Positions 8,612 to 35,892 of a stretch of 64,000 bases of DNA are shown here, one piece after another. A program made the translations under genes and the position numbers. The stretch's first letter is position 1, and every line of letters begins with the position of its first letter. The notes beneath the pieces were generated by a model that saw only the letters and a list, made by a program, of their open reading frames with translations, had not been told where the DNA came from and did no database searches. Origin of the DNA: Marsupella aquatica (lineage: Eukaryota; Plantae; Marchantiophyta); the NCBI GenBank assembly GCA_973895155.1, contig OZ316896.1:18402754-18466753 (forward strand), given 5' to 3'.

Positions 8612-10002
8612 TGTGGTATGGGTGTCCCTGCAATTTTTTCTGGAAACTTGTTTATTTTTAGCATATCACAAGATTTACTTACACTTTAGACACCTTCCGG
8701 CCAACATTTACTTGTTCTGGACACTTATAGAAATATTTGACATCTCCGGCTTTCCTGACGATTCCTAGTGTACTTTGCCCGACGCTGTGACCAGCGCCCG
8801 TTTCTTTTACTCAAGACGCTGCGGAAGCGTCCAACCTCCTCATGACGCTTTTGGCAGTGCCCGACCGCCACCAAGACTCTATGAGGATTTCGACCGACGC
8901 TGTGGAAAGCGTCAGCTTCAACACACGACGCTGTGAGCAGCGTCCACCCTAGTATTGACGCTGTGAGCAGTGTGAGCAGCGTCCGTTGGTTTTACTTAAG
9001 ACGCTTCTAGCAGCGTCCAGATTCTCCCGACGCTTCTAGCAGCGTCCGCTCAACACTTAGTTTTTGAAGTAGATTACTAGTAAAGTAGTATTCTACCACC
9101 CTTGTTGAAGTACTTATGCTGTGCTTCTCCCTTGTTTAGTTTTAAGCTTGGAAAGGCACGACTGTTCTTACCTCCTCCATTTTAGGATTCCAGCACTTAT
9201 AAGACAGAGTAGAATGCTCATTTGAAGTAGAGAGAAATAGAGTTAATACTGTATTCAGAATTGAGTCTTCTGAATAGTTTTCTCCTCCTTCCATTGTAAC
9301 AAGGCATGCTGTGAGTGTTTTGTATGGAAGTAAAGCTATATTGATTGAAGTTAAGATTGAATTCAAGAGATTCCTGTGGTGATTGAATTCAGTTGCAGAT
9401 TTCTGAAACTCGTATTGAATTCACTGCTAGGCTTGCTTGCAGAGTCGGGATTCGCTAGCCAATTCAAGAATAGTTAATGATAAATGAGAAGTAAATTCTG
9501 ATTCTCAGAGTAGTTAGTACTGTTGCTTTGATTCTGGAATATGGTTTAGAGTTTGACTGAATTGCGTATCGCTGATGTCAAACCATGTTGACGGCATTTT
9601 AAATCATATCATTCATTTGCAATCAGAAAGCTTCTGCTTCATCAGATTGAGAATTCCATTATCATTAACCTTTGTGTTTTGAAGAGTGAGATGGATGAAT
9701 TATGAGATAGATTTCATGTCTATACTGAGCCCAAATCCTTTCTGAAGGAGTGGCAGTAGCAGCTTGTAGTCTCTAAATCCTTACTCATTTCTTCTCTAAT
9801 TCATAAATCAGAAGTTCAGTTACTTTGTTGTTTGTTTATTCGATTTTTTTTATTGAGAAGTGAAGTCAACATAGAGCTCAAGACTCTAAATCACTCGGAG
9901 TGATAAAAGTTATACAATTCATTCTGAAATCTGTTCTTAAAGGGATCGAAACCCTGGTTTTAGGTGAGGAGAGTCACTTTTGATACTTAGCACTATACGA
10001 CA
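8612..10002 (+). repeat. 5' LTR of element B (1,391 bp)
   Basis: TGTGGTATGG...CTATACGACA; direct repeat of 20432-21822 with no differences seen by eye. Confidence 0.96.
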
Positions 10003-10008
10003 TCTTTT

Positions 10009-10026
10009 TGGCGCCGCTGCCGGGGA
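10009..10026 (+). promoter_or_regulatory. Primer-binding site, tRNA-Asp type (element B)
   Basis: TGGCGCCGCTGCCGGGGA, one mismatch from the Athila tRNA-Asp PBS TGGCGCCGTTGCCGGGGA; 6-nt spacer after the LTR. Confidence 0.88.
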
Positions 10027-10140
10027 ACGAATTTAAGATTGAATTGACGTACAGGCAGTGTATGCCAGAAGGAGCTAGACGGGAGAGGAATTCACGTTCT
10101 ACTATAATTGTGAAGATGCGTCATCACTCCAGTTAAAAAG

Positions 10141-10347
10141 ATGAAGAGCTTCCATTTCGAGGTGATGCCGTACTCTATCCAAAGCGCCCCGGAAGCTCTC
10201 TTAAGAGTATTGGAAAAATTTGTGGTGCCAAACTTAAGAGAAGAAACCGCCCTCCCACCAGAAAAGGCCTCACAGAGAGGAGCTGTTGCTCGTCAAGTTG
10301 CTTTGGAGATAGTCGAAGACACCAAAGACACTTTGAGTGACAAGTGA
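10141..10347 (+). CDS. Small leader ORF (68 aa) of element B, unknown function
   Basis: ATG ORF with weak positional and sequence similarity (YSIQSAPEAL vs FTMENAPEAF) to the family A ORF at 23840-24007. Confidence 0.3.
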   Translation: MKSFHFEVMPYSIQSAPEALLRVLEKFVVPNLREETALPPEKASQRGAVARQVALEIVEDTKDTLSDK

Positions 10348-10415
10348 AGTTATTCTAACGTTGCTCGGGACGTATGATTTGTAAAATTGTCCAACCATCC
10401 TGGTTCGTGTGACCG

Positions 10416-10676
10416 ATGCCACCTATCCGATCTTTGGGAACATTAAGAATTAGGAATTTGAGGAATCGTTATGTTAATTCTTGGGTTCTGAGCCTGAGAG
10501 GGAGGAATGGCATACATTGGTTAACTATCACCTGGTGGGAAGATGAAAGTTTGCATTTAGTAATATTAAGGCTGAATGGTAGGATCACACAGGAGTGATA
10601 TTTAGTCATTTCCATTCGGGAGTTAGCGGAAAGAATCATGCACCAGGAATTGCGTAGAAGATTAGGAAGGAGTTAG
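10416..10676 (+). pseudogene. Conserved small leader protein (MPPIRSLGTLR family) of element B with an internal TGA at 10596-10598
   Basis: Strong similarity to the family A ORF 24978-25229 continues in frame past the stop (YLVISIRELA vs YVIISIQELA). Confidence 0.75.
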
Positions 10677-11220
10677 ACGTCTGATTAGTAGGATGGCCTA
10701 GTGTAGCGTACCATGTGGTAAAGAAATTTCAGGGTGAAGGAAGTCGGAGATTATGGGGAACGCCCGGTTCCAGTAATCGCCACCGTAAAGGAGATAAGGA
10801 AGGACGCCGCGAAGAGCGTCCAATGCGATTCGTCCCAGAAGATTCCGCAAGTCAGGACGCTTCGAGTAGCGTCCGATCCCAGTGGACGCTGTGAGCAGCG
10901 TCCGGTGGAATCTGTGACGAACCAACGTGCGCGACGCTTCTGGTGTGCCTTTCCGCGTCTCAACCTGAAGGACGCACCAGAGAAAACGAGGTTTTAGAAT
11001 CTCGGCTGGTCACAGAAGGGAAGTATTAGCTACGGGATAGCAAGGGGGAGGAATCATGCAAGGGATGTTGAACGACGCTACGGGAAGTCACTTTGAGGAA
11101 GCAGGTTCATATCTCCCGGAGTGGGGTGATAACGTCGCACCTAAATGGTGACTCCTTGCATAAAGACTCCTGAGGAGCGGGTCTGGTGTCTCAAAATCAC
11201 CCGTGCTTGGAGAATGAGGG

Positions 11221-14200
11221 ATGTCTGAGGGAGATCCACCGAATAAAAGAAAACCTACCAAGACCTCCAGTAATTCGGATGCTGCAAAATTAGTAGTGAC
11301 CCCTCGCACATTGTTACCCGAATTCCAGTCACCAGGAGCACCTGCACCGGGTAGTGTGTGGAAACAAGTGGGATCTATTCAAGAGGCAAGTGGCTCTTTG
11401 GAAAGGCCCACGTCGACCCGACCCCTGTTTGTAAATCTTCGTTCAGGTCCAAAACTTATTGGTTCTCAAAAGACCAAGCTCCGCCAGCAGACAGTACGTT
11501 CGGTGAACCAAATTGACTCTGGTGTGGATAGTACCACTGAGAGGGCCTTATCTCATACCGAAGGAAGAAATTTGGGTTTGCCCGAGAATACAGTTGCAGA
11601 ATCGCTGGCCCAAGATAATTCTGTCGATCTTTCACAATTGGATAATCCAGAACCACTGAGTGAAGCCGGTGGTTCGTCTTCTAGTGAGACAAGCAGCAGT
11701 TCAGGCTTGGGCAGCCCAAACCCATTTGCTACCCGATCAGCTCTTCCTTTCGTTACCCTCCTAGCTCCAACCACGATGGCTCGAAATAATGTGAGGTACG
11801 ACCGGTTCTTCGGTACTTCCAAGGAGGATGCAGAGGTGTATTTGAAAGAATTTGAAGCTGCAGCTGCATCCAATGGACAGAGTCAAGACGCTGAAAAAGC
11901 CAATCTGTTTGGTGGTCTAATGAAAAAGGGTGCTCAGAAATGGTATGACCGTTTTCCGGACAAGCAGGATTGGGGGAAATTGAAGGCTGCTTTCTTGGCC
12001 AAATATAAAGAAGAAGGAGCAGCTGCGCGTGCCTTTGCCCGAATCTCACATCTGCACATGAAGAAACATGGGTCTGTGAGGAAATATGCCGACAAATTAT
12101 TGGATTTGGTAGATCAATATAATCCAGCTACCTCGAAATCTACTATCAAGGACTGGTTTATTAACGGTTTACCCTCCAGGATTGCTCGTTACGTGAGACG
12201 AGAAGGTGGCACCACTTTGGAAGAAGTACAAGAGGCAGCCCAGAAGTACGTAGACTCGGAGATTTCAGAGAGAAAACGAGTTAAGAAGGACCTGAAGAAA
12301 GACAAAAGAAAGAAGAAGAAAACGTCCAGGTCTAAATCTGACTCGGAGACGGAATCAAGTGAAAGTAGCACTAGTGAGGAGGACGAGAGTACAAATTCGA
12401 GCACTAGTGATAGTTCAAGCTCAAGTTCCGACTCAGAATCCGTTGCTCCTAAAAAAAAGAAATCCTCTGTAAAAGGGAATAATAAAGTTCCCAACCAGAA
12501 GAAGATGGATCGCATGATGGAAGAACTCTCTGGCCAATTGTCCAAGTTGAATGTCAATATCGCCGCGGTAAAACCAGTACGAAGGTTGCCTGCTCCCATG
12601 AGAATGAACGTATGGTGCACCCGATGCAGTCAGCAGGGCCATTACCCGAACGAGTGCCCCACATTACGAACCCCGGTGAATTATGTAGATGGTCAAGAAG
12701 AGGCTGAGGAGTATGAGTACGATCCCACGTATACCGTCCAAACAGCACCCCCTGGACAGTATTTCCCACCACCTCCTGCTTCCAGACCGACTTGGGGACC
12801 ACCTAAGCCCACTTTCAATAAACCAACGTCAAGACCACCCATGGGACCCCCGGGAGGATACCCACCACGAGGAATGCCGCGTCAAAAAGGGGCTTGTTGG
12901 AATTGTGGCCAACCTGATCATTATTCACCCCAGTGCCCTTATCCCAAACAGGAGGTGGGGTATACACCTGTCTGTGGGAACTGTGGAAAAGAAGGACACT
13001 TACCGGTGGAATGCCCGAATCCGGCTAAGCCTAGGCTGATGGTTCGATTTGCTCAAGAGCCAGTTAAAGAAGCAAGTCGACCTGAAGCCAAGATTCGGAT
13101 GGTTTATTCTGAAGAGATGGAGCAATGCAGCTTCATTCAACATATGGATGTAAATCGGGTGGAATTAAAGCCAGATTCACTTTTTCATCAACCAGTATCC
13201 GGGGTGGTGCCTGATGTCTTGGTAAGTCATTTAGTGAAACCTGAAGTAGTTGGTATGCCGAATGATCGAGTTCAGAATCGGGATAAAGTTCTGACTAATA
13301 TTTACGCAACTACTCGTTCGAAGAAAAAGGAGACCAAGAAGCACGAGCATCAGAAGGTCGCGAAAGCTCCCAAGGATGAAGGGCGCAAGCCATGTAAGGA
13401 AGGCCTCGACAAAGAAGACGACCCTGCTTATGACCGATATGACCCAAAATACTTCTTGCCCGACATCTCTTTGGAAGTGAAAGACCATCTGGAAGAGCTA
13501 GTTAAGGAGCAAGTGCAATCTCCTAACCCACCAGTAGTAGTCAAAGCTAAAGAGCCACTGAAAAATCCAGGTTATGATATTGTTGAAGATGTCAAGAATC
13601 ATCCTGCACATATCACCATTGGGGAATTATTACAGGACAATCCGGTTTATAGGCGACAGCTGAGGAGCCTCCTTGCAGGAAAACGGAGGAAGAAGAAGTT
13701 ACCTTCTGTGGATGTGCTACGAACAGAGTGGGAGGACAAAGGACCGATGGAAATTGAGGTTCAAATCCAGGGGTGTGTCATTCGGAGAGTTCCTGTGGAT
13801 GGAGGAGCCAGCGTTAATCTGATTACACAGTCAGCAGCATTTAATTTGGGTTTCACTAAGTTTGAGCCCACTCCCAAGATTTTGCGCATGGCGGATCAGT
13901 CTCGTGTGGTACCCATAGGGAAGCTGACCAAAGTAGAAACTTTGATTGCTGGTGTCCCTTTTCTGTTGGATTATGTGGTTATTAATCCGGAAATACCATC
14001 CAGCTTTCCTGTTTTGTTAGGCCGACCATGGTTGTATAAGGCTCAAGTTCAGGTTAATTGGCAATCTCAAGAGCTTTCATTTGGGAAGCCTAAGGTGACT
14101 GTTAGTTGGGTTCCGGAACCACATTTTGGAGAAACACAAACAGATGATGGGTACACCTCGGATTTTTCGACCTCTTCGCTAGTCCTGCAGCCATTGGAAT

Positions 14201-14274
14201 TTGAACTGGAGGAAGTTCGTTACTTGGAAGTTTATCTGTCTGATGCTCCCATAAAACCAACTAGGCCCTCCTGA
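11221..14274 (+). CDS. Element B gag-protease polyprotein (1017 aa)
   Basis: Capsid-like region (MARNNVRYD...WFINGLP), three CX2CX4HX4C zinc knuckles, retropepsin VPVDGGASVN...LLGRPWL. Confidence 0.93.
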   Translation: MSEGDPPNKRKPTKTSSNSDAAKLVVTPRTLLPEFQSPGAPAPGSVWKQVGSIQEASGSLERPTSTRPLFVNLRSGPKLIGSQKTKLRQQTVRSVNQIDSGVDSTTERALSHTEGRNLGLPENTVAESLAQDNSVDLSQLDNPEPLSEAGGSSSSETSSSSGLGSPNPFATRSALPFVTLLAPTTMARNNVRYDRFFGTSKEDAEVYLKEFEAAAASNGQSQDAEKANLFGGLMKKGAQKWYDRFPDKQDWGKLKAAFLAKYKEEGAAARAFARISHLHMKKHGSVRKYADKLLDLVDQYNPATSKSTIKDWFINGLPSRIARYVRREGGTTLEEVQEAAQKYVDSEISERKRVKKDLKKDKRKKKKTSRSKSDSETESSESSTSEEDESTNSSTSDSSSSSSDSESVAPKKKKSSVKGNNKVPNQKKMDRMMEELSGQLSKLNVNIAAVKPVRRLPAPMRMNVWCTRCSQQGHYPNECPTLRTPVNYVDGQEEAEEYEYDPTYTVQTAPPGQYFPPPPASRPTWGPPKPTFNKPTSRPPMGPPGGYPPRGMPRQKGACWNCGQPDHYSPQCPYPKQEVGYTPVCGNCGKEGHLPVECPNPAKPRLMVRFAQEPVKEASRPEAKIRMVYSEEMEQCSFIQHMDVNRVELKPDSLFHQPVSGVVPDVLVSHLVKPEVVGMPNDRVQNRDKVLTNIYATTRSKKKETKKHEHQKVAKAPKDEGRKPCKEGLDKEDDPAYDRYDPKYFLPDISLEVKDHLEELVKEQVQSPNPPVVVKAKEPLKNPGYDIVEDVKNHPAHITIGELLQDNPVYRRQLRSLLAGKRRKKKLPSVDVLRTEWEDKGPMEIEVQIQGCVIRRVPVDGGASVNLITQSAAFNLGFTKFEPTPKILRMADQSRVVPIGKLTKVETLIAGVPFLLDYVVINPEIPSSFPVLLGRPWLYKAQVQVNWQSQELSFGKPKVTVSWVPEPHFGETQTDDGYTSDFSTSSLVLQPLEFELEEVRYLEVYLSDAPIKPTRPS

Positions 14275-17247
14275 CAATTAACTTCATCATCGGAAGTGGG
14301 CCCAGCAGCAGACGAACCTCCTAATACTGAGGCTAATAGGGATTTACACCATGATATGGGAGTGTCAGCTACCCTTGAGCCATTTGCACCAGAAGTATCC
14401 AAACTTGGACTTCAGCCGGCAAACCTCACGGATGGAATTGTGGATCCAAAAGCTTGTCAGAAAATCGAAATTGAGCCAGGCAAGTTTTTGAATATTGGTA
14501 AGCATATCGAAGGAGAGCTACGGGAACAGTATATCAGTTTATTAACCCAGTATAAAGATGTCTTTGCCTGGAGTCATTCTGATTTAAAAGGTATCCATCC
14601 ACATTTGGGCGAACATCGTATTGACCTTATGGAAGGAGCAGTACCTGTCCGACAGAGACAGTACCGTTTGAATCCCAAATATTCCATCCTGGTTAAAGAC
14701 GAGTTGGACAAGCTCACGACTGCTGGATTTATCTACCCGGTCTTGAGTAGTGAATGGGTCTCACCAATTGTCATTGTCCCCAAAAAGCCGGGACCCGATG
14801 GTAAAACGAAAATTCGCGTTTGTCAAGACTTCCGGAAGTTGAATGCTGCCACTCGGAAAGATCATTATCCTTTGCCATTTATTGATCTGGTACTTGATTC
14901 AGTGGCCTTGCATGAGTTATACAGTTTTTTAGATGGGTACTCTGGTTATAACCAGGTGTCCATTCGGAAGGAGGATCGCGACAAGACTACGTTCACCACC
15001 GACTGGGGTACATATGCATTTACCATGATGCCTTTTGGGCTGTGTAATGCCCCGGGTACTTTTCAGCGCATTATGATGATTATTTTTCAAGAATATTTGC
15101 GGCATTTCATGGAGATTTTTATTGACGACTTTTGTGTTTACGGGTCAGCGGCTGAACACCTCGTCCATTTGGAGAAGACATTTCAGAAGTGTAGAGAGGC
15201 TCAGTTGTGTCTTCATCCAGAAAAGTGCTTTATTGGTATGAAGGAGGGAATTTTGTTAGGCCATGTTATTTCACAACGCGGCATTGAGGTTGATACAGAG
15301 AAGGTTAGAGTAATTATGGAGTTGCAACCACCGACCGATTTAAAGCAGCTTCGTGCTTTTCTGGGACATGTGGGGTATTATCGTCGGTTCATTTATAAAC
15401 ATGCTAATATTGCCTTACCCTTAACCCAACTGTTAAAAAGTGATGTGGAATATACCTGGAATGAGGAGCGGCAGCAAGCATTCCAGTTGCTCAAGGATCG
15501 GTTAATCTCTGCACCTATTTTGTCACCCCCAGATTGGACTAAGAAGTTTCATGTCTTCATTGACTCTTCTGCGTTCTGCATTGGAGCTAATCTCAGTCAG
15601 AAGGATGTGGAAAACCGTGACCATCCAATTTACTATGCCAGCCGCCAAATGAGTGCAGCCGAGAAAAACTACTCCGTCACTGAACGGGAAGCTTTGGCCA
15701 TCGTCTTTGCGTGTAAGAAATTTCGTCACTATTTGTTGGGGTATCAGGTTACTTTTCACACTGATCATAATTCCTTAAAATATTTGGTTAACCAAGTGGA
15801 TCTCTCAGGACGAGTAGCCCGCTGGGTTTTACTACTCCAAGAATTTGATTATGAAGTTCATGTCCGACCTGGCAAACATCATGAGAATGCAGACTTCCTA
15901 TCTCGGTTACCTGGTCCGGAGAATCAGCATAATCTCTCCGATGAATTTCCTGACGAGCATTTGTGGCACATTGAAGGGGAGTCTTCTCGATATTTTAATA
16001 TTGTGCACATGCTGCTTCATGGAACGTTCCCTGAAGGCTTTAATGCGGAAGAACGAGCTGTCTTTGCTCATAAGGTGGGTCCCTATACCATTATTCGGGG
16101 CACTTTGTTTAAACAAGGTCCTGATCAACAATTGCGACGTTGTCTAGAGGATAGGGAACTTCCCCAAGTAATTGAAGCTTTACATTCAGGAGAAACCGGT
16201 GGGCATTATGCTGTGAATACCACAGTTAAGAAAATTTTGGATGCTGGATACTGGTGGCCTACTATGCATCGAGATACTTACAATTTTATTAAGACCTGTG
16301 ATCCCTGTCAAAGGATCGGGAAGCCCACTGCTAGTTCCAAATGGCCTCTTACGCCTATCCTTCCGTTGGCACCATTTGAGAAATGGGGGATTGATTTTAT
16401 TGGCCCAATTTCTCCAGCAGCTCGGAAAAGCCGAAGCAAATATATTATTCTGGCCACTGATTATGCCACCAAATGGGTAGAGGCGAAAGCTACTCGCAAG
16501 AATGATGCTATAACCGCAGCTGCATTTCTCTTTGAGCACATTATCACCCGGTTTGGTTGTCCTTTGGAGTTGGTAAGCGATAGGGGTTTGCATTTTCTTA
16601 ACTCAACTATTGAGTTAATCACTGACCTTTATCTTATCAAGCATCGCAAAACTACTCCTTACAACCCCCGAGCTAATGGCTTAACCGAGAGAGCTAATGG
16701 CATTATGGGCAAGATTCTGAATAAAATGGTAGAATCTCACAAGACAGATTGGGATGTGAAGCTCCATTCTGCATTATGGGCTTACCGCACCGCTGAGAAG
16801 ATTACAACTCTTCACACCCCCTTCTATCTGACCTATGGCCTGAATAGTATTATTCCAATAGAATTTTCGTTACCAACGGAACGTATCTTGGTACCACACC
16901 GACTCTCTCCTTCAGATAGTCTCTCACATCGGTTTTCCAATATTGTTAAATTAGAAGAAGTTAGACTTTTAGCATTAGACCATACAGTCACCATTCAGAA
17001 CCAGCGTAAACTTGCTTATGATAAGAAGCTGCGCGTAGTGCAGTTAGATGTTGGTGATTTAGCATTAGTCTTTGATTCTCGTTATATGCTATTTCCTGGG
17101 AAACTTCATACTCATTGGATTGGTCCTTACCGAGTTACACACATCTGGGATAATGGTTCAGTTTCATTGACTACCTTAGATGGTCACCCACTTAACACTA
17201 GAATCAATGGGTTTAGGATTAAACGGTACTATGAGTCTTCCATTTAG
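14275..17247 (+). CDS. Element B pol (RT-RNase H-integrase), intact; probably expressed by stop-codon readthrough
   Basis: Same motifs as family A pol; in frame with gag-PR across TGA-CAA-TTA. Confidence 0.93.
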   Translation, partial: QLTSSSEVGPAADEPPNTEANRDLHHDMGVSATLEPFAPEVSKLGLQPANLTDGIVDPKACQKIEIEPGKFLNIGKHIEGELREQYISLLTQYKDVFAWSHSDLKGIHPHLGEHRIDLMEGAVPVRQRQYRLNPKYSILVKDELDKLTTAGFIYPVLSSEWVSPIVIVPKKPGPDGKTKIRVCQDFRKLNAATRKDHYPLPFIDLVLDSVALHELYSFLDGYSGYNQVSIRKEDRDKTTFTTDWGTYAFTMMPFGLCNAPGTFQRIMMIIFQEYLRHFMEIFIDDFCVYGSAAEHLVHLEKTFQKCREAQLCLHPEKCFIGMKEGILLGHVISQRGIEVDTEKVRVIMELQPPTDLKQLRAFLGHVGYYRRFIYKHANIALPLTQLLKSDVEYTWNEERQQAFQLLKDRLISAPILSPPDWTKKFHVFIDSSAFCIGANLSQKDVENRDHPIYYASRQMSAAEKNYSVTEREALAIVFACKKFRHYLLGYQVTFHTDHNSLKYLVNQVDLSGRVARWVLLLQEFDYEVHVRPGKHHENADFLSRLPGPENQHNLSDEFPDEHLWHIEGESSRYFNIVHMLLHGTFPEGFNAEERAVFAHKVGPYTIIRGTLFKQGPDQQLRRCLEDRELPQVIEALHSGETGGHYAVNTTVKKILDAGYWWPTMHRDTYNFIKTCDPCQRIGKPTASSKWPLTPILPLAPFEKWGIDFIGPISPAARKSRSKYIILATDYATKWVEAKATRKNDAITAAAFLFEHIITRFGCPLELVSDRGLHFLNSTIELITDLYLIKHRKTTPYNPRANGLTERANGIMGKILNKMVESHKTDWDVKLHSALWAYRTAEKITTLHTPFYLTYGLNSIIPIEFSLPTERILVPHRLSPSDSLSHRFSNIVKLEEVRLLALDHTVTIQNQRKLAYDKKLRVVQLDVGDLALVFDSRYMLFPGKLHTHWIGPYRVTHIWDNGSVSLTTLDGHPLNTRINGFRIKRYYESSI

Positions 17248-17269
17248 AATTCCACCTGGGACAGGTTGC

Positions 17270-17285
17270 AATTTAAGTGGAGGGC
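17270..17285 (+). promoter_or_regulatory. Internal duplicate PPT of element B
   Basis: AATTTAAGTGGAGGGC, identical to 20414-20429. Confidence 0.75.
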
Positions 17286-17630
17286 GGTAGTTATACTTAG
17301 TTAGAATTAGTGACCCTCCCTAGTAAGTATTCGGCATATTTTTTTAATTTTTTTTAGTTACTTTCAGTTTTTACATTGGACGCTGTGAAAAGCGTCCATT
17401 GTAACTCGACGCTGGGGAAGCGTCCACTTAGTTTACAAAGGACGTTGTGCAGAGGTCCGCTTTTGTATTAGTTCAGTTGCATGAGACGCTGTGAGCCGAT
17501 GACTAGGCATCTTGTACAATGGCGGATTGCGACAGCTCAACGGGACGCTGAGGAGTAAGCAGTCGCGCTTCGCCCTAGTTCACTATGGAACACGATTCTC
17601 ACTGAGCTTACGGAGCTAACAAGTCACGCG

Positions 17631-19865: not shown

Positions 19866-19877
19866 AGAACACCATTT

Positions 19878-20354: not shown

Positions 20355-20413
20355 TGAAGAACATGTCACTCGCTTCTGATTCAATTCGGTCATGTCTTGT
20401 GGGGACACGGCGA

Positions 20414-20431
20414 AATTTAAGTGGAGGGCTA
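20414..20431 (+). promoter_or_regulatory. 3' PPT of element B
   Basis: AATTTAAGTGGAGGGCTA abutting the 3' LTR. Confidence 0.85.
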
Positions 20432-23726: not shown

Positions 23727-23744
23727 TGGCGCCGCTGCCGGGGA
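23727..23744 (+). promoter_or_regulatory. Primer-binding site, tRNA-Asp type (family A copy 2)
   Basis: TGGCGCCGCTGCCGGGGA, with a 9-nt spacer after the LTR end CTACA. Confidence 0.88.
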
Positions 23745-25229: not shown

Positions 25230-25668
25230 CATTAGTTAGGTCAAGAAATTTGTTAAGTACACCTACTCTCCTAAAAATGGGCGCTGCCGAGAACTGAAGG
25301 GACGGCATTACGAGTAAGCCTTTACGTTTTTCTTTAGAGTTGAAGTTTTACGAGTAAACATACTCGAGTAAGGGTATAATAGTTGACGACTTACGAGTTG
25401 CGAGTTGACGACTTACGAGTTGAAGGGCCGCGATGAACAGGCGCGCCACTTCAACACTTGACCACTCGCTGCGACTGTTGGGGTGTACACCCCCTGAGGG
25501 TTACGAGAAGAGGCGCCATCAAGGGCCACGACGGTGCGAAAGGGTGCCAGCGGGAGGAACAATGGAAGAACGCGACCCCTCCATGCAAACTTAGACTCCC
25601 AAAGGAAACCAGAGTCAGTCCCAAACCATTAACTCGCTCCTGAAGATTGCCGACTTTCAGGATGAGGA

Positions 25669-28600
25669 ATGTCTGATAAAGGGAAGCGAAGTTGGAGATT
25701 AAGACAAGAAGAAAAAGCAAGATCAGAAGCACCACCAACTCCCCTTAATCCTAGGGGACTATTGCCCGAATTCCAATCCCCAGATTACCCAACACCGGGA
25801 AATGTAGTAGAGCGAGTTACCCTCATCCAACGAAATGAAATAGAAGGAACAGTAGACAAGCCTGCAACAAGTCGACCAACAATTTATAAATTACGCTCTA
25901 GGGATGTCCAATACATCTCACCTAAGCCTAAGAAGAAAGAAATTGACATAGCCAAACCACTGAGACGAACACAAAGCTTGGATGAATATGAGGGAACACC
26001 TGCGTTTCAGATAATTGGAACAGGAAAAACTACCAATACAAGGCATGAAAGCATAATTGAAGGAGGAATTCAGCAAATTGAATCTTTAAAATTTAATTCT
26101 GACTCACCTTTACTTCAAAGAACGCCTATTGATGAATCTGTCAGATTAGCAGAAGCACTACCCTCGCTTGGTTATGGAAGTGCCAGCAGCAGCTTAAGTG
26201 CGATAAGCACTCCAAATTCCGTAAATTCAATTTCACCATTAACATCTCAAGGATCAGTCACCAGCACTAGCTCACAATCTCTGAGAGCCTATCCTCCAAT
26301 TAACCCAATTCCGGTTCCTATAAGACGACCTCAAATGGCTCGAAATAATATTCGATACGATACCTTTAAGGGAACATCTAAGGAGGATGCTGAGACTTTC
26401 CTCAAGGAATTTGAAGCTGCAGCCACCTCAAATGGGCAAACCCAGGATGCTGAAAAAGCCACGATTTTTGGAGGGTTATTAAAAAAGAATGCTCAAAAAT
26501 GGTATGATCGATTTCCAGATAAGAATGACTGGGGAAAAACCAAGACCGGTTTCTTGGACAAATATAAGGAGGATGGTGTTGAGGCAAGGGCTTTTGCTAG
26601 AATCTCTCAACTAACCATGAAGAAACATGGCTCAGTGAGAAAGTACGCAGATAAATTACTAGATCTAGTGGATAAATATAATCCCAATACAGCCAAGTCC
26701 ACCACGAGAGATTGGTTTATTAACGGGCTGCCCTCCCGAATTGCAAGGTATGTAAGACGAGAAGGTGGTACAACCTTTGAGGAAGCTCAGGAAGCAGCAC
26801 AAAAATACGTGGACTCAGAAGTTTCTGAGAAGAAAAGAGTAAAAAAGGATTTGAAGAAGGGTAAGAGAAAGGATAAAAAGAAAAAGTCCTCTTCAAGCTC
26901 GGAGTCTGGTGATAGCGACACTACCACTACTGAAGGAACTAGTTCCGACTCGGGCTCCAGCAGTAGCTCAAGCTCCAGTCCAAGTTCTGACGATGCGGAC
27001 ACCAAGACCAAAAGGATGCAGAAAAGCACGGTACCTCAGAAAGCCAAGACCCTGGATAAAATGATGGATTCCTTGACTAGTAAGTTGAATAAACTCTCTG
27101 TGAATGCCGCTATATTTAAACCAACTAGGAAACTCCCACCCACCATACGAAATAATGTGTGGTGTACACGCTGTAATAACCAAGGACACTATCATCATGA
27201 GTGCCCTTCATTGCAACGAGCTGTCAATTATGGAGAAGAGGAAGAGTTATTAGACTATGGAGATACCTATGCGGTCCAAGCACCGTTTGCAGGGCAATAC
27301 TTTCCCCCTGCTGCGGGACCACCTTCATGGGCCCAACAAAAATCCGCAGGACCTTCCTCATTTAATCGGCCTATACCAAGACCACCGATGGGACCTCCGG
27401 GAGGCTATCCACCCAGAGGAGCACCACGAGTACAAGGAACCTGCTATAATTGTGGTCAACCAGGGCATTACTCACCAGAATGTCCGTACCCAAAGAGAGA
27501 AGTAGGGTACACACCAATTTGTGGCAACTGTGGAAAGGAAGGTCATCTCCCTGTGGAATGCCCAAATCCTCCGAAACCCAAGATGATGGTAAGATTTGCT
27601 AAAGAGCCTGTGAAGGAAGCACCCAGACCTGAAGAAGTAAGGATGGTATATAGCCAGGAGAATCTGGAGCAATGCAGTCATGTGACCATAGAAGCAGAAG
27701 CTGAGGAGGAGGTGCATAATATCTATACCCAAAGTCTATCAGGCACTATTCCGGATGTTGATTTGGAGCACTTAGTACAAGACCATGTTGTGGGAATGCC
27801 CAACCTACGGGTCCAAGAACGGGACCGTGTTTTGGAAACTTACGCCACTACCAGATCCAAGTCTCATCATGAGAAGAAGCACGGTGAGGATGGTTCTAAG
27901 CGGAAGAAATCATCCAAACAGAAGAGCAAAACAAGGATACCGGCAAAGGAAGGTATCCCAAAAGAGGATGACCCAGCCTATGACAGGTATGACCCCAAGT
28001 ACTTCCAGCCCGACATATCTACAGAGGTTAAAACTCAAATACATGAGTTAACCAAGGATGCACCCCTGCTAGTGGAACGGAAGGAAGTCCCTCCAGAGCT
28101 AAAAAAGCCTGAACCCAAGATGACCTTGGTACCAACACTCAAACCAAAGGGGTATGATATCGTGGACGTTGTCAAGAGCCAACCTGCCAACATTACGATT
28201 GGGGAGCTATTAGTAGACAATCCCACTTATAAAAAGCAGTTAAGAACCTTGCTGACAGGAAGGAGGAAAAGAAGGAAACTACCTTCTGTGGAGGCCTTGA
28301 GACTAGAATGGGAAGATAAAGGACCTCCGGAAATTGAAGTTCAGGTCATGGGGTGTGTAATACCCGCAGTACCAGTAGACGGAGGATCGAGTGTGAACAT
28401 CATGACCGAGGAAACAGCATCCAACATTGGCATCCATAAGTTTGAAAAGACCTTACAAATACTACGCATGGCCGATCAATCCAGAGTAGTGCCAGTAGGA
28501 AAACTTATTGGGATCGACACAATTATTGGGGGCCTGACTTTCCCCTTAGATTTTGTAGTTCTCCGACCTGAAGTTCCCTCCTCCTATCCTTTGCTATTAG

Positions 28601-28866
28601 GGAGACCCTGGTTATATAAGGCCAAGGTCAAGGTTGATTGGCACCAACGACAGATGTCCTTTGGGACACCCCGAGTCACTATCAGTTGGATGGATGAACC
28701 ACATATGGGCGAAACCCAATCAGATGATGGGTACACTTCTGACTTCTCAGATTCTACTCTCCTTATCAAAGCTCCCAAGTTTGAATCTCTAGAAGTCGGA
28801 TATCTTGATATCATGGAGGTCGAGGGTGACACACCAAGTGAAGGGACTCACCCACCAGTCTCCTGA
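25669..28866 (+). CDS. Family A gag-protease (1065 aa), copy 2
   Basis: Capsid-like region, three CCHC knuckles, DGG-type retropepsin. Confidence 0.93.
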   Translation: MSDKGKRSWRLRQEEKARSEAPPTPLNPRGLLPEFQSPDYPTPGNVVERVTLIQRNEIEGTVDKPATSRPTIYKLRSRDVQYISPKPKKKEIDIAKPLRRTQSLDEYEGTPAFQIIGTGKTTNTRHESIIEGGIQQIESLKFNSDSPLLQRTPIDESVRLAEALPSLGYGSASSSLSAISTPNSVNSISPLTSQGSVTSTSSQSLRAYPPINPIPVPIRRPQMARNNIRYDTFKGTSKEDAETFLKEFEAAATSNGQTQDAEKATIFGGLLKKNAQKWYDRFPDKNDWGKTKTGFLDKYKEDGVEARAFARISQLTMKKHGSVRKYADKLLDLVDKYNPNTAKSTTRDWFINGLPSRIARYVRREGGTTFEEAQEAAQKYVDSEVSEKKRVKKDLKKGKRKDKKKKSSSSSESGDSDTTTTEGTSSDSGSSSSSSSSPSSDDADTKTKRMQKSTVPQKAKTLDKMMDSLTSKLNKLSVNAAIFKPTRKLPPTIRNNVWCTRCNNQGHYHHECPSLQRAVNYGEEEELLDYGDTYAVQAPFAGQYFPPAAGPPSWAQQKSAGPSSFNRPIPRPPMGPPGGYPPRGAPRVQGTCYNCGQPGHYSPECPYPKREVGYTPICGNCGKEGHLPVECPNPPKPKMMVRFAKEPVKEAPRPEEVRMVYSQENLEQCSHVTIEAEAEEEVHNIYTQSLSGTIPDVDLEHLVQDHVVGMPNLRVQERDRVLETYATTRSKSHHEKKHGEDGSKRKKSSKQKSKTRIPAKEGIPKEDDPAYDRYDPKYFQPDISTEVKTQIHELTKDAPLLVERKEVPPELKKPEPKMTLVPTLKPKGYDIVDVVKSQPANITIGELLVDNPTYKKQLRTLLTGRRKRRKLPSVEALRLEWEDKGPPEIEVQVMGCVIPAVPVDGGSSVNIMTEETASNIGIHKFEKTLQILRMADQSRVVPVGKLIGIDTIIGGLTFPLDFVVLRPEVPSSYPLLLGRPWLYKAKVKVDWHQRQMSFGTPRVTISWMDEPHMGETQSDDGYTSDFSDSTLLIKAPKFESLEVGYLDIMEVEGDTPSEGTHPPVS

Positions 28867-31786
28867 CATGAGGAGAGGGCAGAGGAAGACACCCGGATGG
28901 GCGGAAATCAAGATATAAGGAAGGCGCTTACCTGGGATGACATTTCACCAAACGAAACAGATGGAATTGTCGATCTCCGAAAATGTCAGAAGATTGAGAT
29001 CGAACCCGGAAAATTTTTAAATATCAGTAATCATATTGAAGGAGAGTTAAGGGAAAAATATATTGATTTGCTTACTCAGTATAAGGATGTATTTGCCTGG
29101 AGCCATAAAGACTTAAAAGGGATACCACCTCACTTAGGAGAGCACAGGATTGACTTAACTGAAGGAGCAGTTCCAGTAAGGCAAAGACAATATCGTTTGA
29201 ACCCAAAATATTCTATGCTTGTCAAAGAGGAACTTGATAAGTTGACCGCTGCTGGTTTTATTTACCCAGTCCTTAGCAGTGAGTGGGTTTCACCCATTGT
29301 AATTGTTCCAAAGAAACCCGGACCAGATGGGAAGCCAAAAATCCGAGTATGTCAAGATTTCAGGAAGCTGAATGCTGCTACTAGAAAAGATCACTACCCC
29401 TTACCATTCATAGACCTTGTGTTGGATATGGTTGCTCTTCATGAACTTTATAGTTTCCTAGATGGATACTCCGGCTACAACCAGGTGTCAATCCGTGAGG
29501 AGGACAGAGACAAAACCACCTTCACTACGGATTGGGGAACGTATGCTTTTCGAGTTATGCCCTTTGGCCTGTGTAATGCACCTGGAACTTTCCAAAGGAT
29601 TATGATGATTATTTTTCAGGATTTTCTCAGAAAATTCCTGGAAATCTTTATAGATGATTTTTGTGTTTATGGATCAGCCACCCAACACCTGGATCACTTA
29701 AGACAAACGTTCCAACGCTGTAGGGAATCACAGTTGTGTCTACATCCTGAGAAATGTTTCATTGGTATGAAGGAAGGTATTCTGTTAGGACATGTTATCT
29801 CCCAAAGAGGAATCGAAGTGGATGCAGAGAAAGTTCGAATTATTCTGGCATTACAACCCCCTGGAAATTTGAAGGCGTTGCGAGGCTTCCTAGGCTATGT
29901 GGGGTATTATAGAAGATTTATACGGAAGTATGCTGACCTTGCCATGCCTTTAACCCAGCTCCTTAAGAAGGACGTAGCATATGTATGGACTGCGTGCAAG
30001 GCAAACAGCCTTTGAAGTTTTAAAAACCAAACTAACTGTTGCGCCCATTCTACAACCGCCGGATTGGCAGAAACCTTTTCATGTCTATATTGATGCCTCA
30101 GCTTTTTGTGTGGGCGCTGCCTTAAGTCAACTGGATGATGAGAAGAAAGACCACCCTATATATTATGCCAGTAGGCAAATGAATAGTGCTGAAAAGAATT
30201 ATACGGTCACAGAGAGGGAGGCCTTAGCAGTCATTTTCTCTTGTAAAAAGTTCCGGCACTATCTTCTGGGTTATAAAACTATTTTCCACACGGATCATTC
30301 TTCTTTAAAATACCTAGTGAATCAGGCAGATTTAAGTGGGCGCATTGCTAGGTGGGTACTTCTTTTACAAGAATATGATTATGAGGTACAAGTTCGAGCC
30401 GGGAAACACCATGAGAATGCAGATTTCCTATCACGATTGCCTGGAGCTCCTAGTGCCGAACCTTTGTCTGATCAATTTCCGGACGAACAGCTATGGCATT
30501 TGGAAGGAGAAGAATCAAGGTACTTTGACATTGTTCAGATGCTTACTCACGGAATTTATCCACCAGGGTTGAATGCAGAAGAAAAAGCTGTTTTCCTCTA
30601 CAAAGTAGGACCATATACTATTGTGAGGGGTGTTCTATTTAAATTATTGCCAAATCAGAGACTTCACCGTTGCTTGGAAGCTCAAGAAGTTCCAAAGGTC
30701 ATTTCAGCCTTACACACTGAAGCCTCCGGTGGACACTATGCCGTAAATACAACTGTTAAGAAAATTAAGGACGCTGGATTTTGGTGGCCTACCATGCATA
30801 AGGACACTTATAACTACATTCAAAGCTGTGACCCTTGTCAGCGAATAGGGAAGCCTACTGCAACATCAAAATGGCCTCTAACACCCATTTTGCCTCTAGC
30901 TCCATTTGAGAAATGGGGGATAGACTTTATTGGCCCCATTTCCCCTGCTGCTAGACGAAGTAGAAGCAGATATATCATTCTTGCTACGGACTACCTCACC
31001 AAATGGGTGGAGGCTAAGCATACTAGGAAGAATGACGCTGCCACAGCCGCCAATTTCTTATTTGAAAACATTATTACCCGGTATGGCTGTCCCTTGGAAT
31101 TGGTAAGTGATCGAGGCCTGCACTTCCTTAATGAGACAATTGAGCTCATCACTGAGAAATATCTGATTAAGCATCGAAAGACCACCCCTTATAATCCCCG
31201 AGCTAACGGATTGACTGAAAGAGCTAATGGGTTAATGGGCAAAATATTGAATAAAATGGTGGAAGCACATAAAACGGATTGGGACATCAAACTCCACTCT
31301 GCTTTATGGGCTTACAGAACTGCAGAAAAGATTACTACCTTGAGAACGCCCTTCTACTTAACTTTTGGTATGCATAGTGTTACCCCCATTGAATTTGAAC
31401 TACCTACTGAACGGCTTCTGATCTCTGAGAGGTTACCTGAACTTGATAGTTTCCACACTAGGTTGGAAGTTCTGGATGAATTAGAAGAACATAGACTTCT
31501 AGCGTTACAGCATACCATACAACAACAGGATAAACGGAAGATGGCCTATGATAAGAGGTTAAAAATACCGACACTACAGCCAGGAGATTTGGCGCTTGTG
31601 TATGACTCTAGGTATATGTTCTTCCCTGGGAAGCTTCACACTCACTGGATCGGCCCTTACAGAGTTGTTACCGTATGGCCTAATGGGTCTTTAACTTTGG
31701 AAACCCTGAATGGAGAACCTCTTGATACCAGAATCAATGGATCCAGAGTGAAGAAATATTATATACCCCACTCTAATGGCTTGTGA
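28867..31786 (+). pseudogene. Family A pol, copy 2, +1 frameshift at ~29994
   Basis: ACTGCGTGCAAGG versus intact ACTGCAGCAAGG (copy 1, ~4604); split into 372-aa and 601-aa ORFs. Confidence 0.92.
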
Positions 31787-31815
31787 GGGCACGGCGCCGT
31801 TTGAGGAGAGGGCTA

Positions 31816-34800
31816 TGTAGATAGGCAGTAATTCCAAAGTCATGAAGAAAACCGGAAAATTTTTAAATTTTTGAAGTAGTTAAACTATATTTGCTGATAA
31901 CTCGAGTAAACTAAACTCTGCCGAAGATTAAGAGTTTAAGAGTTGAAGAGTTGAAGTGTTTAAGAGTTTACGGGTTTACGAGTAAACCCTACTTTAATAG
32001 TTGAAGAGTTGAAGAGTTGAAGTGTTTAATAGTTTAAGAGTTTAAGGGTTTACGAGTAAACCCTACTTTAAGACTTTACGACTTTAAGAGTTGCGACTTG
32101 CGAACTGGCGAGCCCCGCGATTGTGACAGGCTACGGCTAACTCCAATGGGACTTTGCAACAAAACGAGGAGCAGGCCTTGAAGGGGGAGGAATCCAGAAC
32201 ATAGGCGCTCACTCCTGACTTCTCTTCCGCTGCATTTTTCATCGCTCTCGACTCCAAACAATTCTTCGTGCAGCTCAGTGAGCAGAATTTGAGCTATGGC
32301 TGACTTGGACGCTGATGCACAGTATCGTGTTCAAACTCTGGCAATTCCTAAGAGTGTGGTCGCTCGAATTCCTTTGGCGCCCGACAGTTGTGAAAATTTG
32401 AGAACATCGTTACAGCAGCTCGGATTGGAACATCTACTCGCAATCCCTTGGAATGTGGAGCTCGACTCTTATTTACAGGATTTTGTGAGAGGATCACTGA
32501 TTGCCCCTGAATTTCGACAAACCATTCGAGCTCGGCCAAGTTTATGGACAGTTGAGCAAGTAGCTCATGCCTTCCGCTGCCCCTTAGATGGAGAAGGATT
32601 ATATTCAAAGAAAAAAGATTTGTCCACTCCTTACTTTTCAGGGATTCGCCATCCTACCAATGGCTGGAATGTGACACAATGTACCTATCCGGATTTGAGG
32701 ATTCTTTTAGAATTTCTAGTGCCCATTCTCCATCCGAAGAGACCAACTATCTGCCCTGTGGCATTGGCGAATACTATCGTAGCTTCTCACAGTGGAGCTA
32801 TCCAAGTAAATTGGGCGTTGTTACTTTTCAATGTGATGCACGATCAGGTGAGAAGTATGAAGGCAGGCAGACCTACTTGTCTACAAGTCTATCTATCTCA
32901 GCTGTATCAAGCACATGACTGTTTACATCCAGAGGAGAAAACAGAAAGGGGATTACTTCTGATCGAGTTGGACATTGAGAAAGAAATTAGTGTAGCAGAA
33001 TCAGAACAGGACATTCTGCTGAATTCCACTGATCAGGATGTTAATATGGACATCGATGTTAATATGGAGGATGTCTCGATAGGTGGTTCGGAATTTCCCC
33101 CTGAACACAACATGGAGGTCATTTTATACTCTCCAAGAGAAATCAGTGGAGCAGATCAACTTGAAGCTGAAGGAGACGAGATTTTTCCTGAGCAACAAGA
33201 AGTCGTTGTTGAACCAACTATTACTGCCATACGAGGAGTCACCATGCCCCCTTTTTCGAAAGCAGAGTCAAATCAGCAGCTTATTGATAAGTTAATCTCT
33301 CTCTTCGGTTGCAGTGATGTTGAACTCTACGATGTTGTCTGTGATTTGAGATCCGAGGCAGTTAGCTTATCCTCTCCATTTCCAGATCAGCTAACCCCTG
33401 TCAGGATCGCTTCTCCCATTGAGAGGTCAGCACCAGAAGAATTTGTTGCTCTCACTCCTACTGTCCCACAGAATCTACCTCCAGAGCCAAGTGAACCTGT
33501 CTCAAGGATAGGAAACACAAGTTGTGTTGCAATTGTAACTGACCTACTGGAATTGCTTCAGTGTGAACCTGAGGAGATAATCTCTGTGGTTAGTGACTTA
33601 ATTCCGAAGTACACAGAATTCAAAGGCCCTTCCAACCCGGGTGACTGCATTTATAGTCCAGATTCCAATTATGAACCAACCGAGGGACCTATTTATACCC
33701 AACCACAGTATGAACATCCTTCTGTTAGACAGGATCTTCCTGAGGATTCTGATCCACCCTCTGATTTTGATTCCATCCGATCTTATGACAACTCTGTCGA
33801 GTCGTCACCAAGGCAAGGATTTGAGGATGTTGACACTACCTTAAGATCTGATCCAAATTTAGTGGCAGTTGTCACCTCCTCTACTCAAACACCCCGGTAT
33901 TCTGTCATTGAGAAAAGATATACACGACATCCAGAGTCTCAAGTGCAGAGGTACGTGGAGACTTGTAAGATAATGCAGGCCAACAGACCCCCAATTGGAG
34001 AGTTTTGGAGATACTACTACCTTAAGAAGACTGAGGCCAGTTACATATTTGACCTCAGAAGTTTCGGAACTTCAAGAGTGGAGATGGCTCAATTTGATGA
34101 GTTCTGGACTGACTCAATCTACTTCCGACCCATCCTTGCTATGATGCTACTTCAAGGGGATGTAGAAGTAGAAGATCCAGATTTGGTTTTGGCCTATTTC
34201 GGGAATTTTGCAGCTTACGCTCTGGACTTTGTGATTTCTTTTCTCATGCAGAGTAAGAAATCCACTTCTCACCAGAACTCTTACATTCCACGAGAGCCGA
34301 AGGTTGTCCTTGTTTCCACCAGTTCCCTAGCTGAGAAACAGAGGATCTGGAATAATGTCACTACTCAGACCCTGGCTCATTTCAACCGATATTTTAAAGA
34401 TGTCAGATGGAGACTTCGACCCTTCTATTCCAGGATGATGAATAGTGATGAGTTTCTGCATCACTATCCCCAAGTATATGCTGCCACCTGCAACAACTAT
34501 GATGTACTAGGGATATACAGAGAAGCTCTTCGTATAGATTCCTGTTATTTGATGAAGCGAATGCCTTTGATGTATCCTGAGAGACAACTAAGGTGCCTAC
34601 CCTACTCTCGAGGATCACCACGTCAGACTGAGCTGATGGAGGTAACACAGAATCGGACTGTCACCTACGTGGAGCTGCTCGAACCCGATGATATTCGACA
34701 ACAAGCTTGAAGGAGACTATCTTTTTAGCTAGTATTGAAAAGTATAGTACTTTTACCAATTTTTCTAAATGTGTTGTAGAGCTTTAAAAGCTATGAGACT

Positions 34801-35892
34801 TCTTTAGGCTGTAGTCTGTACCTAGGAAACCCTACTGGAAAAATTTCAGAGTTTTCCGAACCAGGAGTAGAAAGTTAAAAATAGTTGAATCTACTCAATT
34901 TTTAGTATACTGAAATTAAGAGTTTAAGAGTTTAAGTTTTTACGTTTTTAAGAGTTTAAGTTTTTAAGAGTTTAAGAGTTCATACTTAGCCATTTTTTCC
35001 GGCTTTCCACTTATTGAATCGTCGTTTTGACTTTTTGAGGGTTATGAAGAGGCATGTCTCTTCGACCCTGTGACCTCTTATTCTGTAGTTCATCACTATT
35101 TATACCTCTTCCCCTAGTGTAGAGAGATGGTTAAGTTTTGCAGTTTTGCCTCTCCCTTGTGTTAAACTAGTTGATCATGAATCTATGAGTTCGAGATCAG
35201 GTTTAACATTTGGAGAGACTTACCTCCTTCTTGTATTTTGGAACCCAAATACTTGAAGTAAAACCTCAGTTATGAATCTCGTGAATTATAATGTCAGATT
35301 CCGCTTTGGTGACACATTGTAATCTCACAAGTTCTTAGAGTTAACTCATTGAGTTTAAGTTGCATTGGAAATGATGTTTTCACCTTCATGTTGCTTAGTA
35401 CCATCTAAATGCTGAAGTATTTATCCTTTTAGATCTTGACTAAATATCACTTAGGAAGAAAGGTCAAGACATGTTGCCGGCATTTTAAAAGGATACTCTA
35501 GTATGCAGTTTAGATCTGAAAAGCCGTGTGGATTTGGATTCCCTTTAAAGTCATTCCATTATTACTTATGTCTAAGGAGTAACCTTGGTCTATTCCAGAC
35601 TCCCTTAAGCATACTCTGAGAGATTTTTCCTTGTGTTTTGTTAATTGCAATCTTTTGCTTAATTGAAGGTTATCTGATGTTGAGTTATCATCAAAAACTA
35701 CTCACCGCTGTGGAGCGATCTTCAAAGTACCTGATTAAAGTAGTCAAGATTCATTACTATGTGTGACACAAGAGCTTAAAGCTTTGTTTTTAGTTTATTA
35801 CATCAAACCAACCCCATCTTGTTCTTAAAGGGAACGAATACCGAGTTTGGAGACTTTAAAATGTGATTTTTGGTTCTCTATGGCAAACTACA
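31816..35892 (+). repeat. Family A LTR 2 (shared between copies 2 and 3; 4,077 bp under the long-LTR model)
   Basis: PPT|TGTAG...CTACA|PBS; alternative shorter start at 34810. Confidence 0.65.
32296..34710 (+). CDS. Family A accessory ORF3 (804 aa), the only intact copy
   Basis: Uninterrupted ORF; N-terminal domain shared with element B ORF3, C-terminal ~230-aa domain not shared. Confidence 0.85.
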   Translation: MADLDADAQYRVQTLAIPKSVVARIPLAPDSCENLRTSLQQLGLEHLLAIPWNVELDSYLQDFVRGSLIAPEFRQTIRARPSLWTVEQVAHAFRCPLDGEGLYSKKKDLSTPYFSGIRHPTNGWNVTQCTYPDLRILLEFLVPILHPKRPTICPVALANTIVASHSGAIQVNWALLLFNVMHDQVRSMKAGRPTCLQVYLSQLYQAHDCLHPEEKTERGLLLIELDIEKEISVAESEQDILLNSTDQDVNMDIDVNMEDVSIGGSEFPPEHNMEVILYSPREISGADQLEAEGDEIFPEQQEVVVEPTITAIRGVTMPPFSKAESNQQLIDKLISLFGCSDVELYDVVCDLRSEAVSLSSPFPDQLTPVRIASPIERSAPEEFVALTPTVPQNLPPEPSEPVSRIGNTSCVAIVTDLLELLQCEPEEIISVVSDLIPKYTEFKGPSNPGDCIYSPDSNYEPTEGPIYTQPQYEHPSVRQDLPEDSDPPSDFDSIRSYDNSVESSPRQGFEDVDTTLRSDPNLVAVVTSSTQTPRYSVIEKRYTRHPESQVQRYVETCKIMQANRPPIGEFWRYYYLKKTEASYIFDLRSFGTSRVEMAQFDEFWTDSIYFRPILAMMLLQGDVEVEDPDLVLAYFGNFAAYALDFVISFLMQSKKSTSHQNSYIPREPKVVLVSTSSLAEKQRIWNNVTTQTLAHFNRYFKDVRWRLRPFYSRMMNSDEFLHHYPQVYAATCNNYDVLGIYREALRIDSCYLMKRMPLMYPERQLRCLPYSRGSPRQTELMEVTQNRTVTYVELLEPDDIRQQA

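Follow-up and report, generated by a model that had tools for sequence, protein, structure and literature searches.

Background

Extra open reading frames (ORFs) on both sides of gag-pol, PMD, ATHILA and Transposase_28 domains, large long terminal repeats (LTRs) and repeat arrays have been described in non-chromoviruses, in passages of two papers (PMC6317226; PMC7264820). Retand elements carry family-specific repeats together with a predicted DNA-binding ORF, according to passages of PMC11963269 that mention neither VANC nor silencing, and an Athila14 ORF of sunflower carries Transposase_32 (PMC11728184, cited in part). For Diaspora, the excerpt of the description cited here gives a primer-binding site (PBS) and no leader ORFs (PMC1142308). 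The function of the extra ORFs of plant Ty3 elements and of family-specific internal repeats is called unknown in passages of reviews (PMC7264820, PMC11963269). In the VANDAL transposons, VANC21 and VANC6 bind 8-9-bp words that are repeated in non-coding parts and differ between families (PMC5735166, cited in part), and structural homology between PMD and VANC has been published (PMC13547354; bioRxiv 2024.09.27.615353; both cited in part).

The window analysed here is a 64,000-nucleotide stretch of Marsupella aquatica DNA (assembly GCA_973895155.1, contig OZ316896.1, positions 18,402,754 to 18,466,753) that contains two related retrotransposon families, A and B, best explained as recently active Athila-like Ty3 elements. 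Coordinates are those of the window, and all element features lie on the + strand. Both families have a large sense ORF (the big ORF) after pol, with an N-terminal domain (N-domain) predicted to fold like VANC21, and short DNA words private to the family. From these models and sequence patterns we propose, at a probability of roughly 0.52, that the product of the big ORF is a sequence-specific DNA binder of the VANC type, which would recognise the family-private word and counter host silencing, in elements with a readthrough pol and, in family A, an LTR-borne ORF.

Results

Three families with a common layout

Family A forms three tandem units with a period of 12,175 bp and 99.8-99.9% identity, in which neighbours share LTRs, an arrangement that is frequent in plants (PMC11899658, cited in part). 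The first unit in the window is truncated at 2843. Family B is present as one copy (8612-21822) that sits within the first A LTR, the left part of which is at 6425-8611 and the right part, acting as 5' LTR for the next tandem unit, at 21823-23717. The 5' and 3' LTRs of family B (8612-10002 and 20432-21822; 1,391 bp each) are identical, and GAGAG flanks the element on both sides as a 5-bp target duplication of the Athila type.

A third family, L001, was reached through one match to the N-domain. A profile of the two N-domains was searched against 1.84 billion representatives and gave 451 clusters (50% identity) at E 0.001, of which the best 150 of 451 were listed. L001 is a 10,852-bp metagenome contig holding a permuted whole element in the order PBS, 79-aa leader gene, gag-protease (gag-PR), in-frame stop, pol, polypurine tract (PPT), 742-aa ORF, second PPT and LTR of ~1 kb. 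Its pol is 65% identical to those of A and B. Neither the N-domain nor pol had a match in scans of viral contigs. The PBS 18-mer is identical in A (23727-23744), B (10010-10027) and L001, 6-12 bp past the LTR, and we take it to be of tRNA-Asp type, like that of Athila. A tRNA search of the window found no host tRNA, and an Rfam search of 8600-36000 gave no match.

In A, B and L001 alike, a PBS and an ~80-aa leader gene precede gag-PR, an in-frame stop separates gag-PR from pol, and a sense ORF of 740-800 aa follows pol. An earlier, sequence-only reading of this DNA had listed three leader ORFs (55, 286 and 83 aa) and an 804-aa 3' ORF for family A, and two leader ORFs, a 744-aa 3' ORF and a second protease-like ORF for family B. 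All of these ORFs are present where it placed them, but the 804-aa ORF likely lies in the A LTR rather than internally, the 55- and 68-aa ORFs are of chance length, and A pol is frameshifted in the unit described. A tblastn search of L001 for the 55-, 68-, 158- and 286-aa ORFs gave no homologue of any; the accessory genes conserved in all three families thus number two, the ~80-aa leader gene and the big ORF, not six. The proposed accessory repertoire on both sides of gag-pol is thus upheld in that conserved, selected genes lie on both sides, although only two occur in all three families. None of eight window accessory proteins was present in an exact-sequence lookup in a protein collection, and NCBIfam gave no match for the accessory ORFs.

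The big ORF and its N-terminal domain

The 744-aa ORF of family B (17631-19865) consists of a VANC/Transposase_32-like N-domain, an acidic-proline linker and a C-domain that is conserved in L001 and four other representatives. The 804-aa ORF of family A (32296-34710), intact in this LTR, has an N-domain predicted to be VANC21-like and lacks that C-domain; its own C-domain has 79% identity to that of an intact relative of 808 aa. Similarity between the A and B proteins is confined to the first ~210 residues (30-32% identity, E 4e-25). Together with the leader protein (83 and 60 aa, 80% identity), this bears out the claim that at least two accessory proteins are conserved between the families. 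At 32% identity for the N-domain, against 79% for pol and 80% for the leader protein, sequence comparison indicates that the N-domain diverges fast relative to pol. The N-domain of A (32296-32985) is closer to that of L001 (L001 4222-4866; 39%) than to that of B (17631-18275), whereas pol is closer between A and B; this discordance, with the C-domain common to B and L001, suggests cassette exchange.

An AlphaFold2 model of the N-domain, built from an alignment of 79 sequences (from the listed matches and the window), had a predicted local distance difference test (pLDDT) score of 96. With this model, a VIA fold search returned VANC21 as the top match with a Z of 7.9, which is inside the range that the tool gives for unrelated models (root-mean-square deviation 4.2, 200 of 220 residues; next match Z 4.2), and Foldseek placed VANC21 at rank 1 (TM 0.43, E 0.55). 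Look-alikes of the N-domain in the ESM Atlas were Transposase_32 (23 of 30 matches) and ATHILA clusters, at 0.91 and with 158-162 shared features, and are taken as a lead only. BFVD held no match for the N-domain, and Pfam gave no DUF1985 match for the N-domain or its homologues. The big ORF probably belongs with the Transposase_32, ATHILA-ORF, PMD and VANC-type domains of plant Ty3 extra ORFs. Because of the full coverage, the gap to the next match and the published PMD-VANC homology, the modelled N-domain and VANC21 likely share ancestry.

The largest 19-residue Kyte-Doolittle means in the three big ORFs were 1.53, 1.48 and 1.30, indicating by simple hydropathy that no transmembrane segment is present. 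The big ORF is not env-like, and the retrovirus-like repertoire claimed by the earlier reading was overstated, this ORF probably being of a known plant Ty3 extra-ORF domain type.

Family-private words in non-coding regions

Words were chosen from k-mer counts and then counted by region: upstream of gag, upstream of the big ORF and directly downstream of the big ORF. In family B, GACGCT has 7, 6 and 14 sites in these three non-coding regions (1,527 bp) and 3 elsewhere (27/30). The family A word, TT.AGAGTT, has 1, 5 and 6 sites there and none elsewhere (12/12). AGCGCT in L001 has 3, 1 and 4 sites in the three regions (8/14), with 6 in coding parts. No site of the A word was found in the matching regions of B and L001; the B word has none in those of A and 3 in those of L001. 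Family-specific repeats, as first proposed, are thereby counted by region in three families.

Clusters of the words precede gag and the big ORF, and others lie in U3. In family B, the cluster before gag is at 10800-10950 (7 sites in 10677-11220), that before the big ORF at 17370-17550 (6 sites), and the 14 sites after the big ORF are in 20355-20954. In family A, a cluster of variant forms precedes gag (25310-25430), and 8-bp arrays lie upstream (TTAAGAGT; 31928-32093) and downstream (34916-34980) of the big ORF. The L001 word forms another cluster in the gag-PR tail (L001 637-700).

The VANC21-like predicted fold, the fast divergence and the occurrence of private words at the same three places argue for the anti-silencing reading. 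Each family's big-ORF protein would bind its own private word, and this binding would lift host silencing of that family. Support comes from the predicted fold and the word pattern, and word binding and the loss of silencing would follow by analogy with VANC.

The family A LTR probably includes the big ORF

In B and L001 the big ORF is internal, between two PPTs, and CTA/TG follows the second PPT alone. The internal tract of B (PPT1, 17273-17285) has no TG after it, and its terminal tract (PPT2, 20417-20431) ends GGGCTA before the LTR TG. Family A has a single intact PPT (31801-31815), placed after pol, with the terminal-type context GGGCTA/TG: it reads GGGCACGGCG...GAGGGCTA followed by TGTAG, as does the terminal PPT of B. 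This TGTAG mirrors the CTACA end at 35892, and no purine run of at least 10 occurs between the end of the A big ORF and 35453. In public runs, other families have the PPT and TGTAG in common with A and diverge at 31819, and one contig of run X5 begins exactly at 31816 (among the contigs listed). The depth of window-like contigs is ~3x higher across the 31816 boundary in X1-X3, contig depth not being equal to copy number. Loose contig ends showed flank junctions at neither end of the A LTR, not even at the known 3' end, so the test is insensitive. We conclude with good confidence that the A LTR spans 4,077 bp (31816-35892; TGTAG...CTACA) and includes the 804-aa ORF.

Plus-strand synthesis in family A would be primed from the PPT next to pol, which would place the big ORF, with the word arrays on either side of it, inside the 4.08-kb LTR and let them persist in solo LTRs. 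The A/B pair would represent a simple route for gene entry into an LTR, by a change of the priming PPT. In runs X4 and X6, single contigs join across most of the big ORF (32086-34961 and 32228-34381), which suggests A-related LTR variants without it.

The in-frame stop between protease and reverse transcriptase

Family B gag-PR (11221-14274, 1017 aa) contains a capsid, three CCHC knuckles and an aspartic protease, and ends TGA CAA TTA in frame with pol (14275-17247, 963 aa), which contains reverse transcriptase (RT), RNase H and integrase. Family A gag-PR (25669-28866, 1065 aa), likewise with three CCHC knuckles and a protease, ends TGA CAT GAG in frame with pol (28867-31786), which has the same three domains and is frameshifted in this unit; the only intact A pol in the window is in the truncated copy (3507-6395). 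Pfam detected RVT_1, RT_RNaseH, Integrase_H2C2 and rve alone in the 962/963-aa pol, and no second RNase H or chromodomain over the ORFs; pol has no room for an archaeal-type RNase H (aRH).

The conserved in-frame stop noted earlier was found in all three families, once in each after the protease: TGA CAA TTA in B, TAG CAA TCA in L001 and TGA CAT GAG in A. The B and L001 contexts match the tobacco mosaic virus (TMV)-type motif CAR YYA, a context in which each of the three stop codons is read through in plants (PMC2754532, cited in part). B and L001 keep this context with different stop codons (TGA and TAG), which argues for selection on a readthrough signal. Leaky readthrough of this stop would yield pol as part of a gag-PR-pol fusion. 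Sireviruses have the same readthrough motif before the env-like ORF. In each of the three A units, a PPT-like 13-mer with 1 mismatch to the A PPT directly follows the PR stop (28868-28880), and its recombination with the real PPT would cleanly delete pol.

Leader ORFs

The A copy of the conserved basic leader gene encodes 83 aa (24978-25229). The B copy (10416-10676) has a stop at codon 61, so that its ORF is 60 aa (10416-10598), and homology extends ~20 codons past this stop. Comparison of A with B gave a rate of nonsynonymous change (dN) of 0.24 and of synonymous change (dS) of 2.8, with mismatches at codon positions of 22/13/43. The gene, as compared, is not neutral and is under purifying selection. 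Between A and B the leader protein (80% identity) and pol (79%) are equally conserved; further homologues of the 83-aa protein were found at 88% and 74% (2/5 candidates), and the L001 79-aa protein is 45% identical to it (E 1e-18). The protein is small and basic (14 K+R, 4 D+E), and a regulatory role is likely for it. The model of its structure, a beta-meander with a helix, is of low confidence (pLDDT 59); a fold search with it gave no informative match (best Z 5.2), no Pfam family matched the protein, the ESM Atlas gave no usable match, and a metagenome scan with the leader-protein alignment gave none.

ATG ORFs of at least 55 aa arise in 588/1000 leader shuffles and of at least 68 aa in 292/1000, so that length provides no evidence that the 55-aa ORF of A (23840-24007) and the 68-aa ORF of B (10141-10347) are genes. 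Similarity between the two is weak, its score being reached in 19/500 shuffles. The A 286-aa ORF (24035-24895) exceeds chance length (0/1000 shuffles) and is absent from B and L001; a homologue search gave 0/978 candidates at E 0.1 (lengths 157-501 only). The 286-aa ORF and the protease-like ORF of B are likely family-specific acquisitions. In both A (25663-25677) and B (11215-11229), the gag AUG is overlapped by a 4-codon upstream ORF (M-R-N/D-V-stop), which in A directly follows a splice-acceptor-like CTTTCAG.

The protease-like ORF of family B and LTR stems

The 158-aa ORF of B (19878-20354), not found in A or L001, contains a retropepsin-like region and is longer than chance predicts (0/1000 shuffles). 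An hhalign comparison aligned it with the protease of the elements themselves across 93 columns (probability 68%, E 5e-5), and Pfam Asp_protease_2 matched at E 0.022, under the cut-off. A search of PDB sequences with this ORF found no match. As its Asp (DPGS) is kept and the Gly of the C-terminal motif is replaced, its sequence is likely that of a diverged, possibly inactive, family-specific protease copy.

Covarying LTR RNA stems had also been proposed. One 7-bp mid-LTR stem pairs TCTTGAC with GTCAAGA in A and GTTTGAC with GTCAAAC in B; two of its base pairs differ on both sides between these two sequences, and on this alignment covariation is plausible. The LTR 3' ends of the three families have TTCTTAAAGG in common but yielded no net covariation across the three (term +0.44).

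Neighbouring features

The A array ends, followed by GATGT, beside ORFs with a DUF7869 domain (48179-51202) that likely belong to another transposon. An intronless F-box/leucine-rich repeat gene is at 54945-55820 and a PADRE-domain gene at 62435-63052; these two neighbours mark the host as a land plant. Tandem arrays unlike A and B have units of 17/35 bp (56885-58073), 65 bp (1064-1368) and 73 bp (60762-60977).

Discussion

Several observations weigh against the proposed combination of a VANC-type protein, a readthrough pol and an LTR-borne ORF. Beyond the Z and E values given above, identity between the N-domain and VANC21 is 10%, a search of the 79-sequence profile against PDB sequences gave no VANC21 match, and Pfam Transposase_32 was detected in only 1/79 and 1/34 homologues, sub-threshold. 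The words were selected after k-mer counting, and the A cluster before gag is mostly of variant forms. The other two A LTR copies of the 804-aa ORF (2/3) stop at codon 61, the B leader gene carries a stop, and the A context TGA CAT GAG agrees with the readthrough motif in its first two bases alone. For the A LTR, degenerate PPT-like remnants occur 3' of the big ORF, the contig starting at 31816 was seen in 1/4 runs among the contigs listed, depth does not triple relative to long internal contigs (X1 1238 vs 846-993; X5 63 vs 91-105), and no copy of A in the window has both a 5' LTR and a target duplication.

The big ORF may instead encode a DNA or chromatin binder of the PMD/ATHILA-ORF type with another job, as a transactivator, an integration tether or a silencing factor like MAIN/MAIL, the words then serving as enhancers recognised by this protein or by host factors. 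A common fold does not show function, host MAIN/MAIL proteins have the same fold (PMC13547354; bioRxiv 2024.09.27.615353; both cited in part), and the Retand TRP28 ORFs are proposed transcription regulators (PMC11963269, cited in part). We nevertheless consider this unlikely: fast N-domain divergence with private words at matching positions fits VANC-like co-evolution of protein and target, and sites for host factors would be expected to be common to the families, whereas the words are private. The doubt may also concern the LTR of family A, which could be an ordinary one of ~1.1 kb starting past the 804-aa ORF at a degenerate PPT, with the ORF internal as in B and Athila. PPT-like remnants near 34706-34722 and 34780-34794, a TGTAGT at 34810, the steep climb of summed contig depth toward the 3' end from ~33750 and the internal-ORF layout of B and L001 agree with this. 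We judge it improbable, as the remnants are missing either a purine run or the TG, the tract that follows pol shares its terminal context with the proven LTR start of B, and one contig begins at 31816.

Several ORFs on both sides, a basic leader protein that recalls Tat/Rev and one plausible covarying stem would be in keeping with a retrovirus-like lineage in which the 3' protein is env-like and five or six genes are regulatory. Such a lineage is very unlikely given the low hydropathy of the A and B big ORFs (maxima 1.53 and 1.48), a soluble, helical N-domain model, the chance length of the 55- and 68-aa ORFs and the restriction of the 286- and 158-aa ORFs to single families. Least credible of all is that the accessory ORFs are captured passengers of no function for the element: stops do occur in several window copies, but the leader gene has a dN of 0.24 against a dS of 2.8 and intact homologues at 88%, 74% and 45%, and the N-domain is represented by 451 clusters at 50% identity and in an intact 808-aa relative. 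The VANC-type anti-silencing reading is accordingly preferred.

More tentatively, and at less than even odds, the families may belong to a widespread non-seed-plant Athila-like lineage with its own VANC-type anti-silencing through protein-word co-evolution, in which the PPT switch of A leads to self-derepressing solo LTRs and the 80-aa leader is an undescribed lineage-wide retroelement factor. If so, each A solo LTR would be a self-derepressing trans-activator of its family, and the purpose of Athila-type 3' ORFs and of family-specific repeats would be explained. Anti-silencing of this sequence-specific kind has been described in VANDAL DNA transposons (PMC5735166, cited in part), and an LTR counterpart would extend it to the commonest plant repeats. 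The three related families would form matched protein-word pairs, open to direct swap comparison.

Comparison with known systems

The sequence-only reading did not recognise the architecture as one already described. The exact combination was not found in the searchable literature, but ORFs on both sides and a PR-RT stop are tabulated in the part of REXdb cited (PMC6317226). In a literature search that covered few subscription papers, the layout, an ORF inside a plant LTR and VANC-like anti-silencing by an Athila-type ORF were not found. The predicted VANC-like fold with private words, the readthrough context and the likely position of the ORF in the A LTR had been missed by that reading.

By their features A and B are Athila-like. 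Athila, as described in passages of PMC6317226, on which the REXdb statements here draw, resembles these elements in length (~12-13 kb), 5-bp target duplication, lack of aRH and chromodomain and, probably, in a sense 3' extra ORF with an ATHILA/Transposase_32-like domain. In those passages Athila has no 5' extra ORF of at least 250 codons, shorter extra ORFs being uncounted, and has a single ORF or a gag-PR stop. Unlike Athila, the present families have a conserved ~80-aa leader gene, a PR-RT stop and, in A, an ORF likely inside the LTR. The arrangement GAG-PROT:s:RT-RH-INT is that of 49% of Retand and 14% of Ogre elements and is not prevailing in Athila, and TatII, Ogre and Tekay have extra ORFs on both sides, as here (PMC6317226). 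The Tat clade is also similar in its PMD or Transposase_28 domains and family-specific tandem repeats (PMC6317226, PMC11963269; both in part), but aRH was not found here, and the 3' ORF is sense whereas theirs is antisense. Phygy elements differ in a 4-bp NCGN duplication and no extra ORFs, in contrast to the 5-bp duplication and large extra ORFs of A and B.

Unlike VANC of VANDAL, which are Mutator-like DNA transposons, the protein is encoded here by LTR retrotransposons, and no sequence-level match connects the two. The TMV-type readthrough signal (PMC2754532, cited in part) is matched as stop-CAR-YYA at the PR-RT stop of B and L001, and in its first two bases only in A. Likeness to VANC21 and VANC6 (PMC5735166, cited in part; PDB 9lnk, 9lnj) lies in the predicted fold, the fast-evolving protein and the family-private non-coding words.

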